From Sarea resinae (taxonomy: Eukaryota): a stretch of DNA of 59,947 nt. The notes below the pieces were generated by a model. That model saw only the letters and a list, made by a program, of their open reading frames with translations, ran no database searches and had not been told where the DNA came from. The DNA lies in the NCBI GenBank assembly GCA_026026165.1, contig JAPEUD010000022.1:248001-307947 (forward strand). Direction: 5' to 3'. The first letter of the stretch is position 1; every line of letters starts with the position of its first letter. Of this stretch, positions 29,267 to 51,173 are shown one piece after another. The position numbers were made by a program, and so were the translations under genes.

Positions 29267-30017
29267 GCAATTGGACACGATTGTCACGAAAGAGGCCGAA
29301 ATATACGACCCCGACACGTGCCATGGCATGCCTGATTTCTGCATAGATACTTGCATTTCTAATGAAAGGTAGACTGAAATCAGACAGCTCTGGGAACTTC
29401 ATGCCCTATGACCTCAAGATGTGATATTCAATGCTAATGAAGAAACGTTCGAGATGGCCAATTGAACAAGTGAGTCACTTTCTTACTTTTAATTTTCATT
29501 ACCCCATTGGCGAAAGATTATATATTTTTAACCCTGATTATCCTATGAGGATAAAAAAGCGACAACAACACTCTAATTTTTTCATGACGCCTGTCGAGAC
29601 AGACTTATCTCTTCGTTTATCTACATTTTTAGAGGAGTGTTCACTAATACGTTCTGTTAGCAGTGAAGAATGTCTGCAGTGTAGCCTTTTTCCCATGCGC
29701 CGTTAGTAGCCCGCACGAACTTGACAAATTCCCTGCATGCTCTTGTACATGAAATCGTACATTCGCCCCAGCTATTCAAAACATGACCTGCCAACGTTCC
29801 CCCCGGAGCTTTTCCAACCTTACCGAGCTTTCCCACAATATCATAATCCATGCATGTCGATGCGGCGTCGTAATTGATACCTAGTTAGAGGCAATGGAAT
29901 TATATTTAATAAGAATAGTATGCGCTCACAATAAGGCCTGTAGCAATTCTGTGTTGTGTCGGCACACGATGGGTACCTTGGTCTAGTTCGATAGAAAGGT
30001 TAACGGGTAGGCTGATT

Positions 30018-48421: not shown

Positions 48422-49244
48422 ATGGATCCATACACACTTTATACCGATAAGATTGATGAGCCTGCCGAGGAAAGGCCAATGCCTCTGGTGCCTCCACTGA
48501 GCTTTGCCCTGGTATCACCGGGTGTATACAGGTCAGGCACCTTCCAATATATTATTCCATAATCGAGATCCCTTGTATCTTCTTCCTGCTCGAGGATCGC
48601 TGACTGGATTGTTTTGTAGATCTGGCTACCCACTCGAGATCAATTTTCCAATGCTCGAGAGACTGCACCTTCGGACACTCATGTATGTCTCATATCCTAA
48701 TATCTGATTTTGAGACCACTTCGCCGCATTACTAATGCTCTGTACTAGATACTTGGCTGATCAGGAACCACTGGAAGAGACAGTCCAATGGGCCCAGCAA
48801 AAGGGTATTCAGATCGTACATTACCGCGTCTCTAACGTGCGGGAGCCGTTTGTAGAGAATGATCCCGTCGCTATCAAAGAAGCGCTGAAACTTCTTGCAG
48901 GTAGGCTCCTGATCGTCCTTCTCTTTCCCAACTCCTTAGGCTTCTCCTTCCCGACCCCGTCGAAATTCAGCTAGACTTCCCGCTTCCCCTCTCCTTACTC
49001 ACGCACAACCTCAGATTCGCGGAATTTCCCCATCCTCCTGCACAGCAATAAAGGCAAACACCGTGTCGGCGTGCTAGCAGGCTGTATGCGTAAACTTCTG
49101 CAATCGTGGTCCCTCGCTGCCATTAACGCTGAATATATGCGGTTTGCGGGCGAAAAGGGCGAGGCCGACTTGGAATTCATCGAACTCTTTGAGCCGGAGC
49201 TGGAGATAGAGGAGGAGTGGAAGCCGAGCTGGTTGAGAAGATGA
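48422..49244 (+). CDS. OCA2: Siw14/Oca-family phosphatase-like protein, Oca2 type (Cys-to-Ser P-loop)
   Basis: LVPPLSFALVSPGVYR|SGYPLEINFPMLERLHLRTLI|YL, FPILLHSNKGKHRVG, IRKLLQSWS-like block, DLEFIELF; 3 introns; TGA at 49242-49244. Confidence 0.82.
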
Positions 49245-49719
49245 ACCCGTCATGGACGTATGGGCGCATGTGCTCAACGAGAATTGTGCGTTTGTCTAAA
49301 GGAGGCGCATGCCTAATCTGGGATGGACAGTGGGCAGTGGGCTTCTGTGGACGCATACCAGAAGGCGACGCCGGGCGAGGACGAGCGCCATCGCTATTCA
49401 CAGACTGTGGATACCACGCCTGTCTGCTCTTTGACTGAATTTCTCCAATTTTCAGCACTAGTAGCATCGTCCACCAGTCCACACTCCTCTTCATGCGCCA
49501 AGTCTTCAGAGGTCGGGAACGCGGCGCGTCGACTCTATATTACATCAAAATATCGGATGCCAATGCCACCGGAACACTACGTCGTCCTGAGTGCGGTAGG
49601 AGTGGCTGTGGATGTGGTACCTAGCGGTAGTGAGAGCCGTTGCAGGAGTGCTGCTGTGTGTGCGAGTGTGGGTGTGGGTGTGGATGCAGGCATATATGTT
49701 TGGTTCACACGTACATCTT

Positions 49720-50090
49720 TCGCAAGCAGGTGTCGTGGCGTAGCTCGGGGAGATTCGTCTCCTCAGAGTCTTCGGGGGAATTCAACATCTCCCCCCTATG
49801 ATCGCCGCTATAAAACTTAGAACCCACGCTTCGCTGAAAAAGCAGAGGACCTGGGGCCTCTAGCTGAAGAAAACCTCGCGGTTTTGGTAGGGACTCCTCG
49901 AGAGTCCTGAGCTTTTTGCCTTTTGGGGGAGGTGCCTGGTCGTGTCCCGCCCGTTTCGAGGAGGCGCGTGTTGATGTTTTGCCTCTTTCGGAAGGGGGGT
50001 GTCTACCTCTGGCCGGCGCCGTCGAAGTCTATCCCGCGCCGCTAACCGTCCGCTGCCGGGTTCGATTCCCGTCATGAATTTACAGGTAGC
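49720..50090 (+). ncRNA. Candidate structured non-coding RNA of unknown family
   Basis: At least 7 hairpins, several closed by G-U pairs that favour the + strand. TATA-like 49692-49697, A-box-like 49736-49748, T5 49913-49917, B-box GGTTCGATTCC 50059-50069. Confidence 0.55.
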
Positions 50091-51173
50091 ACTATCAGAA
50101 TCGAATAAAAATGAACGACATGGTGTGTATGGCCCCATCCTCTCCTTTCCCCTTTCCCCTCCAGTCAATAACTCTCTTTCGCACCCGTTCCCATCCGATC
50201 TCAGGCTCAAGGAACACCATATCACACAGCCCCGACCCGACCCAGCCCAACATACTAACAAGCCACCAGCCTTCCCGCCAGACATCAGCCACCCCGCCCA
50301 GAAAACATCCCCCTCCTCCCGATCCTGTTAAGAAAGGGGAGATCTTACAAGATCTTCTATCCTATCCGATCCGATCCCATCCCATCCCATCATACCGGGG
50401 ATCGTGTAATCCAATCTCCGAGCAGCTCAAAACCTGGCGTCGAGGGATCGATCGAGGCTCCGAGGAATTAGCGGTTTGGTTGCGGAAGTTCAGCAGTGGG
50501 GTGGTTGAGAGGGGGGCTGGTGATTGTATTTGCTCGGTCTTGTGAAGAGGGGTAGTTAGCTAGCACTACCTTAGGTACCTTATATACACGGTTCTCTCTT
50601 CGTGAGCGAGCCAGTGAGCGAGCTGGGAGGCTCTTCCTCCTTTTCTACCTCCCTGGCTACCTATCTACCTACCTTACCTAGCTAGTAACCTCCCCGTTAT
50701 CTCAAGCAATGACATGGTTTAGTCTTCTTATGATGTCTCCAAGGTATCCTTTATGGTGCTGATAGTTAAAGAGAGAGGGAGGGAGGAGCCTGCCTACTGG
50801 GTTCAACTATACGCCTCTCACGTAGGGTTGGTGGATTATTCTGTTCTCCTCCAGTAGGAAACTCGGACATAGCACAGACGACACGAAAGCAACCGACTAG
50901 GCATGTATGTGTATGGGGTGGTCAACAATGTCAATGCGATCGATATGAATGTGGAGTAATCTTCGTATATTTTCCCGCAATATGGATATGCGTGCAAGCG
51001 TATTGGCCAGAGTATGTTCTCATTGGATGAAGAAGTGCTCCCTACATATGATACAACATCCCCCTCCACTCTCCTTTCGCCCCTCCCCTACCCCTGCATT
51101 GAGCTCTCCTTCAATCGGCCTTCTCATTCCAGATGCCACCAAACGCGGGTCGGCAAAAGATCCGATCGCACAT

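Follow-up and report, generated by a model that had tools for sequence, protein, structure and literature searches.

What does the non-coding DNA at positions 49720-50090 of the 59,947-bp stretch of Sarea resinae analysed here (the window) encode? The original prediction had placed there an unassigned, highly structured RNA gene between OCA2 and ATP3, either an undescribed fungal RNA of about 195 nt or a divergent snoRNA, and all of the motifs that it named (21/21) were found at their coordinates. Domain matches of the neighbouring frames put these positions in a 1.9-kb non-coding interval flanked by convergent genes, in agreement with the proposed setting:

stop at 49244, + strand: gene for an OCA/SIW14-type phosphatase (PF03162), identified at the level of the family, within which OCA2 is not distinguished
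other side of the interval, - strand: ATP synthase gamma gene (PF00231 domain match)

The neighbour named ATP3 is therefore borne out by its domain, and that named OCA2 as far as its family. From comparison of sequences within the genome, the element appears to be an undescribed gene for an RNA of no known family. The full reading, to which we give about an even chance, is a small multigene Pol III family with a type-2 promoter, a B box outside the gene and a folded RNA of 196 nt.

Four dispersed copies of one unit

The assembly comprises 25.5 Mb in 143 contigs, and its intron-rich genes, a fungal SRP RNA and an snoRNA of Aspergillus type suggest a filamentous ascomycete. A DNA search of this assembly returned four loci on four contigs. 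The locus, which had been taken as single-copy, is one of four dispersed copies, namely the window copy, L002 (93% identical), L003 (90%) and L004 (69%), which align as follows:

49588-50079, + strand: duplicated unit common to the window copy, L002 (G000:C67) and L003 (G000:C60), 93.1% and 90.3% identical over ~493 columns
~49666 to 50080, + strand: part of the window aligned by the distant paralogue L004 (G000:C92), 64.7-69% identity

L002 and L003 share ~630 bp with each other, reaching ~40 bp further upstream and ~100 bp further downstream than the window copy; this extra sequence (L002:1976-2078, L003:1400-1501) has diverged about as much as the spacer, and terminal repeats were not seen in it. 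Three DNA and three pattern searches of the genome found no paralogue past the same four loci, and three one-mismatch pattern matches were at control level and failed the covariance model; more distant paralogues are possible. The copies are not an assembly artefact, because the L002 and L003 variants are also present in contigs of sequencing run X1, which is possibly the source sample of the assembly. A snow metagenome (run X2) contained a 265-base piece identical to 49624-49888, while runs X3 and X4 gave over the unit a simple-repeat piece or nothing, which proves no absence, and no contig in the four DNA runs bridges the unit. Downstream of the element the window carries a pentamer microsatellite at ~50357-50393.

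The four copies have different neighbours: Sir2 and separase genes at L002, a methyltransferase and a polyprenyl synthetase at L003, and an amine oxidase with an unnamed frame at L004. The window copy, L002 and L003 are each placed shortly downstream of a gene of the same orientation, with a converging gene on the far side; L004 lacks this setting, which argues against a 3' UTR element.

Promoter anatomy and predicted transcript ends

Scanning the four copies revealed an ordered set of elements, all on the + strand. The original prediction had overlooked the A box and the TATA element with its start site, and had counted the B box as the arm of a stem:

49680-49686, + strand: heptamer at -41/-40 in 4/4 copies; each of them repeats it once more upstream and has a version differing by one letter within a downstream 24-mer
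49693-49698, + strand: TATA-like element at -29, invariant in 4/4 copies and at the same place in the genome's U6 and SRP genes
49716-49722, + strand: pyrimidine-rich start region with 10 invariant bases; predicted +1 at G49722, after TTC
49736-49748, + strand: A box at +15 (+14 in L004), 10.1 bits (46 tRNA genes: 4.2-11.8)
49913-49917, + strand: T5 then GC, predicted terminator at +192 (+212 in L004), in 4/4 copies
50059-50070, + strand: B box at +339, ~145 bp past the terminator, 18.0 bits, equal to the best tRNA genes

The A- and B-box matrices were built from 46 of the 52 genomic tRNA matches, leaving out three mitochondrial-looking matches and three second members of duplicate pairs. The B box is the sole site of at least 15 bits on either strand of the 59,947-bp window, and it lies at +339, +340, +338 and +340 in the four copies with scores of 17.3-18.0 bits; other B-box sites in the units score at most 4.5 bits, except one of 11.0 bits at +217 in L003, beyond T5. 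The A box scores 10.1 bits in three copies and is weak in L004 (5.4 bits); in three of the four copies it is the best site of its unit. The TATA-like element stands at -29/-28 in 4/4 copies, and such a word occupies the same band in 20 of 46 tRNA genes versus 2.1% of random sites; the genome's U6 and SRP genes also have a G start after TTC, with TATA at equal spacing. Behind tRNA genes, T5 is the commonest first T run (18/46) and GC the commonest next dinucleotide (20/45), and the genome's SRP RNA reads through an internal T4. The heptamer is common by itself, with 29 such sites in the 60-kb window. A composite pattern of TATA, start and A box, built post hoc after seeing the element and U6, had a single match in the window, recovered each of the three paralogues and the U6 gene, and missed SRP.

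TATA, start, A box, T5 and B box keep equal order and spacing in 4/4 copies. The distance from A box to B box is 323, 324, 322 and 325 bp, and the 15 indels of 1 to 32 bp that separate the window copy from L004 between the two boxes sum to +2 (p about 0.05 for so small a sum, in a post hoc sign shuffle). We regard this type-2 Pol III gene anatomy as probably real. If so, TFIIIC would bind the strong B box (~+339) and the A box (+15) across ~324 bp of nucleosome-wrapped DNA and would place TFIIIB on the TATA element at -29. Pol III would start at G49722 and stop at T5, so that the RNA would be 196 nt long and end in oligo-U. Such a promoter, in which the B box stays within 2 bp of its place despite 15 indels, offers a natural test of the reach of TFIIIC between A and B boxes. 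Pol III genes with B boxes so far downstream escape the usual tRNA, SINE and Rfam scans, and the pattern helps to find others.

ARAGORN and Rfam found no tRNA at the locus, and in alignments of the element to 49 genomic tRNA genes the best lay within the shuffle range. With the B box held fixed, tRNA similarity beat 258, 278, 296 and 294 of 300 shuffles in the four copies, each time with a different tRNA. At L004 (1400-1480, - strand) the surroundings of the B box resemble a decayed tRNA gene with a partial A box 39 bp upstream (10.3 bits), and when this region was compared with a threonine tRNA gene, its similarity exceeded that of 294 of 300 shuffles, a result that the other copies did not reproduce; the B box may have been left by a former tRNA gene. 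A tRNA with a giant intron was rejected: in L004 the stem of the T arm is broken, and pairing of the 5' end with the 3' end is confined to two copies.

Other Pol III genes of the genome gave separate observations. The U6 gene (L075:1501-1760; G000:C72) is interrupted by three introns of spliceosomal type, the first of which contains its B box (14.0 bits). Five pairs of equal-length tRNA matches lie on opposite strands 0.4-19 kb apart (G000:C35:229557/229948, C52:315755/316231, C52:217495/220707, C89:151041/152335 and C13:359371/377955), with the same isoacceptor in both of the pairs whose two members were read, which suggests that Pol III genes of this genome tend to undergo inverted duplication. 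A 50.7-kb AT-rich contig (G000:C16; L028, L045, L072) with clustered intron-less tRNAs is probably the mitochondrial genome.

The DNA past T5 bears on where the transcript would end:

49960-49983, + strand: 24-bp block past the terminator, invariant in 4/4 copies, with a second T4 followed by GCC at its end (49977-49980)

At up to 3 mismatches this block has four matches in the genome, all of them exact (control 0). Between the lineages, 32 of the 34 aligned bases of 49918-49983 (94%) are identical versus 150 of 191 in the RNA. The block may be a back-up terminator, a DNA-binding site, the sign of a longer RNA or a gene-conversion tract. Its invariance and the constant length from +1 to the B box (358-360 nt) speak for Pol III reading through T5 to give an RNA of ~260 nt, ending at the second T4, or of ~360 nt, with the B box inside near the 3' end. 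T5 is also predicted to lie in a helix with A5, and in 2/4 copies the ~360-nt form pairs an invariant 7-mer at +98 with the B box (mean 0.72 and 0.59). Read-through is nonetheless quite unlikely in our judgement. A conserved terminator after the B box was not found: T4 runs lie at +363, +388 and +392, and the window copy lacks one up to +520. The spacer shows three times the rate of variation of the first 195 nt and carries a 32-bp indel, the part past T5, which holds the last two stems of the original prediction, folds with z of -0.4 in the window and +2.1 in L004, and T5GC ends many tRNA genes. Because a common terminator past the B box is absent and the L004 spacer folds badly, we rank the long forms lower; of the two sizes proposed at the outset, ~195 nt, ending at T5, has gained support and 365 nt is left as the less likely rival.

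Conservation and fold of the predicted RNA

Across the three close copies, 9 of the 195 columns from start to T5 vary and indels are absent, versus 32 of 236 columns in the flanks (Fisher p=0.0016; the upstream part contributes 11 of 97 and the spacer 21 of 139). The fold compatible with all four copies was described as two domains:

49722-49917, + strand: predicted Pol III transcript, 196 nt (216 nt in L004), with two folded domains
49722-49835, + strand: domain 1, a long basal stem in which helix 49735-49740/49803-49808 closes a three-way junction, with a UUCG and a G/C hairpin
49808-49817, + strand: invariant A-rich TATA-like segment (+87 to +96), predicted unpaired (mean pairing 0.20-0.31), with a tandem duplicate in L004
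49836-49917, + strand: domain 2, an A5/U5 closing helix with three hairpins or a single rod

A 53-pair model, drawn from the same four sequences and thus from two independent lineages of one genome, had 97.6% of its cells paired and seven pairs changed on both sides. Its score was reached by 0 of 500 shuffles, and slid controls gave at most three double changes. Since four of the seven double changes fit one register shift at the UUCG hairpin, we count three to four independent compensatory events. The model contains 13 G-U cells versus one A-C cell, which favours an RNA on the + strand; the + orientation, which the original prediction had drawn from G-U pairs, gains from this count and from promoter elements that all read on +.

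The description of the whole interval as highly structured did not survive: 49720-50090 folds no better than shuffles, with z of -0.21 on + and +0.23 on -. The 5' domain (49732-49811) reached z of -2.9 (0/200 shuffles), with -3.5 and -3.4 in the close paralogues and -1.9 in L004, and the predicted 195-nt transcript only -1.4 to -1.6. The hairpins of domain 1 have pair probabilities of 0.87-0.99 in the three close copies and of 0.90 and 0.75 in L004, where the basal stems are poorly predicted (0.01-0.31) and the minimum-energy fold departs from the model (-78.2 versus -42.4 kcal/mol when forced). In domain 2, the rod and the three hairpins, the latter being the alignment consensus, are close in energy in 4/4 copies (-31.0 versus -28.3 kcal/mol in the window copy and -34.4 versus -34.5 in L004).

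As the main milRNAs of Neurospora derive from Pol III genes that end in poly-T (PMC3547838) and a domain 2 rod is possible in 4/4 copies, the transcript could be a Pol III primary transcript for microRNA-like RNAs with domain 2 as the Dicer substrate. Against this, the longest unbroken helix is 7-8 bp, the arms differ between the lineages and the three-hairpin fold is equally stable, which makes a pri-milRNA very improbable.

Would selection act on the RNA or on the DNA? A TFIIIC-bound barrier or promoter module with an incidental RNA, in which the internal TATA-like segment and the 24-mer are protein-binding sites, would account for the fact that the most invariant blocks are unpaired or outside the RNA. 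The fixed spacing suggests chromatin geometry, and at Neurospora milR-1 the recruitment of Pol III depends on an internal TATA-like element (PMC3547838). The compensatory changes, the 13:1 excess of G-U over A-C on one strand and the limitation of reduced divergence to start-to-terminator all run against this explanation, and we think it very unlikely.

From the paralogues, the promoter anatomy and the purifying pattern we infer an RNA gene, transcribed by Pol III with the ends given above, which supports the originally predicted undescribed fungal RNA of ~195 nt ending at T5. Its product would form two compact domains, selected as a folded RNA, and would most likely act through protein binding, as a scaffold or decoy, by way of the unpaired A-rich segment, and not by guiding modification. 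This segment is our best candidate for a protein-binding site; alternatively it could serve as an internal promoter element, as at Neurospora milR-1. With four exact occurrences in the genome and no further exact match on either assembly strand, the surrounding 14-mer gives no sign of an antisense target. More tentatively, and on balance doubtfully, the copies may represent a new fungal class of functional small RNP RNA with two old paralogous lineages, a B box held ~324 bp off by compensating indels and a switch of the 3' domain between rod and three hairpins. Several findings stand against the full reading of a Pol III family with an external B box: the small number of lineages, all in one genome, the modest z of the whole transcript, the departure of the L004 fold from the model, the weak A box of L004, a block past T5 that exceeds the RNA in conservation and is not accounted for by this reading, and an A-B distance (~324 bp) far above the 202 bp of SNR6. 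Gene conversion could have homogenised the core.

Known RNA classes, related systems and mobile elements

Over the locus, Rfam gave no match at gathering score, and searches of the window copy and L004 at E up to 10 returned chance-level matches only, in keeping with the novelty originally proposed. The sole gathering-score match in the window is a box C/D snoRNA, Afu_298 (RF01507), at 29510-29589 on the + strand (58.9 bits). A further observation past the element is a perfect branch-point word followed by CAG in non-coding DNA at 50253-50269 (+), where an obvious strong donor was not seen.

The snoRNA-like boxes on which a divergent snoRNA had been proposed are present as letters in the window copy and are not conserved among the paralogues. 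Changes affect the hexamer at 49865 in 2/4 copies, the hexamer at 49798 in 1/4 and CTGA at 49907 in 1/4, ACA at 50082 occurs in the window copy only, and there is no ACA before the T5 end. A divergent box C/D or H/ACA snoRNA, perhaps processed from a Pol III precursor, draws on CTGA just before T5 in three of the four copies and on chance-level SNORD74 matches of domain 2 in two copies (E 6.2 and 1.4; 12-14 bits, cut-off 41). A canonical C box is absent in 4/4 copies, the C-like GA is lost in L003 and the 3' D box in L004, so that a C box near the 5' end with a D box near the 3' end was not found. Nor were two pocket hairpins with an H hinge and an ACA 3 nt from the 3' end, and ACA is missing near the predicted 3' end. 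The stretch before CTGA is lineage-variable or a compensated hairpin; would-be guides lie in hairpins that change compensatorily, candidate C/D guides differ between the lineages, and antisense to U6, SRP and MRP is at shuffle level. We drop the snoRNA assignment as highly improbable.

Pol III also makes RNase P RNA, and a highly diverged nuclear form of it was considered, as an RF00009 search of the genome, scoring 15 of 1375 candidates, came back blank while U6, SRP and MRP were found encoded elsewhere. Neither P4-forming region is present in 4/4 copies, and RF00009 has no match at E up to 10, which leaves this identity barely credible. RNase P/MRP RNA was rejected on the missing P4 core strands in 4/4 copies and on the genome's MRP being encoded elsewhere. 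As a separate observation on the genome, the RF00009 search, in which 15 of 1375 candidates were scored and which had no positive control, found no nuclear RNase P RNA. The original prediction saw no hallmark of U1, U6, RNase P/MRP or a telomerase template, and comparison of the copies agrees, with these motifs missing or not conserved. The hammerhead core, Sm site, telomere template and U1 and U6 motifs were likewise missing or not conserved, and the element has no similarity to SRP. An HDV-like ribozyme and a Fanzor-type guide RNA were dropped after inspection by eye.

In metagenome contigs a 21-mer scan gave two matches, both inside one bacterial coding region, and a gapped pattern had no match in viral contigs and five in prokaryotic genomes. 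The covariance model scored only the four known copies among 42 sources (178 kb, prior matches included). Relatives outside this fungus were thus not found in the metagenome, viral and prokaryotic collections, which hold no fungal genomes as such, and the family is probably lineage-restricted, as judged against collections without fungal genomes. In the literature within reach, which excluded most subscription papers, we found no description of such a family; the accessible portions of PMC2377427, PMC5640933 and PMC1636426 describe none, and the Aspergillus candidates of PMC2377427 were compared via Rfam alone.

By analogy, the closest system in promoter type is S. cerevisiae SNR6, and the closest in kind are Yarrowia RUF70 and other lineage-specific Pol III RNAs (RUF6, 4.5S). 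SNR6 combines a TATA element with an A box inside the gene and, at a distance of 202 bp, a B box past the terminator; a positioned nucleosome bridges the two boxes, and the arrangement is spacing-sensitive (PMC5855946, PMC9136082, PMC1796607). The element resembles SNR6 in its upstream TATA, inner A box, B box past the terminator and apparently constrained spacing, and differs in the A-B distance (~324 versus 202 bp), the product (a non-U6 RNA versus U6) and its four copies. RUF70 (PMC2566860) is 70 nt long, without its own promoter and co-transcribed behind tRNA-Trp, whereas the element is stand-alone and 196 nt. With Neurospora pri-milR-1 to -4 the element shares Pol III, a poly-T end and TATA-like elements outside and inside the transcript; milR-1 lacks A and B boxes (PMC3547838), and a long unbroken stem of Dicer type was not seen in the element. 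Plasmodium RUF6 (PMC9670795) and rodent 4.5S RNAs (PMC10137851) are small Pol III families outside the universal set in other kingdoms, with which we claim no sequence relation. Past tRNA, 5S, U6, SRP and a few milRNA precursors, little of the Pol III transcriptome has been charted in filamentous ascomycetes. If correct, a stand-alone, multi-copy, structured Pol III RNA of 196 nt would be a new entry.

How did the copies disperse? Sharp-ended copies dispersed over unrelated contexts, three of the four flanked by converging genes, would fit a mobile element of SINE-like or DNA-based type, non-autonomous, driven by a Pol III promoter and with folds that serve its own copying. Fungi do have SINEs of low copy number, 140-493 bp in length (PMC5063351), and tRNA-derived ones of the AfuSINE2 type are similar in low copy number, length and possession of A and B boxes. 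In comparison with these SINEs, the element has no tRNA-like head spacing, no duplication and no tail, and its upstream promoter DNA is copied. The A-B distance of 322-325 bp comes without tRNA or SRP similarity (5S was checked via Rfam), and the boundaries are not at the transcript ends. The best target-site duplication is 5-6 bp, when 173 of 200 random pairs give 5-9 bp, and none of the copies has a 3' tail. Because the common sequence starts 130-270 bp upstream of the predicted start and this upstream DNA is also copied, retroposition of the transcript is an unlikely source.

Nor did the element show similarity to the 22 reverse-transcriptase loci examined, whose 3' ends were mostly not included, and the six of them with frames read are LTR-type, with no LINE among them. 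Only 6 of 46 substitutions among the copies are in RIP context, set against heavily RIP-mutated retroelements, and TpA/ApT is 0.77-0.96 in the four copies and 0.66 in the window versus ~2.0 in 15 of 20 retroelement loci. Short unlinked repeats may escape RIP. On this evidence a mobile element is unlikely, and a solo LTR was rejected, with only four copies, none near the 25 reverse-transcriptase matches and no duplication above chance. We propose instead that the copies of the putative Pol III gene spread by DNA-level duplication that carried the promoter along. The retroelements themselves comprise 25 reverse-transcriptase matches (L087-L108), 15 of the 20 fetched loci being RIP-like (TpA/ApT ~2, GC 30-39%), and at least three LTR-type elements retain open frames of more than 1000 codons (C108, C42 and C52).
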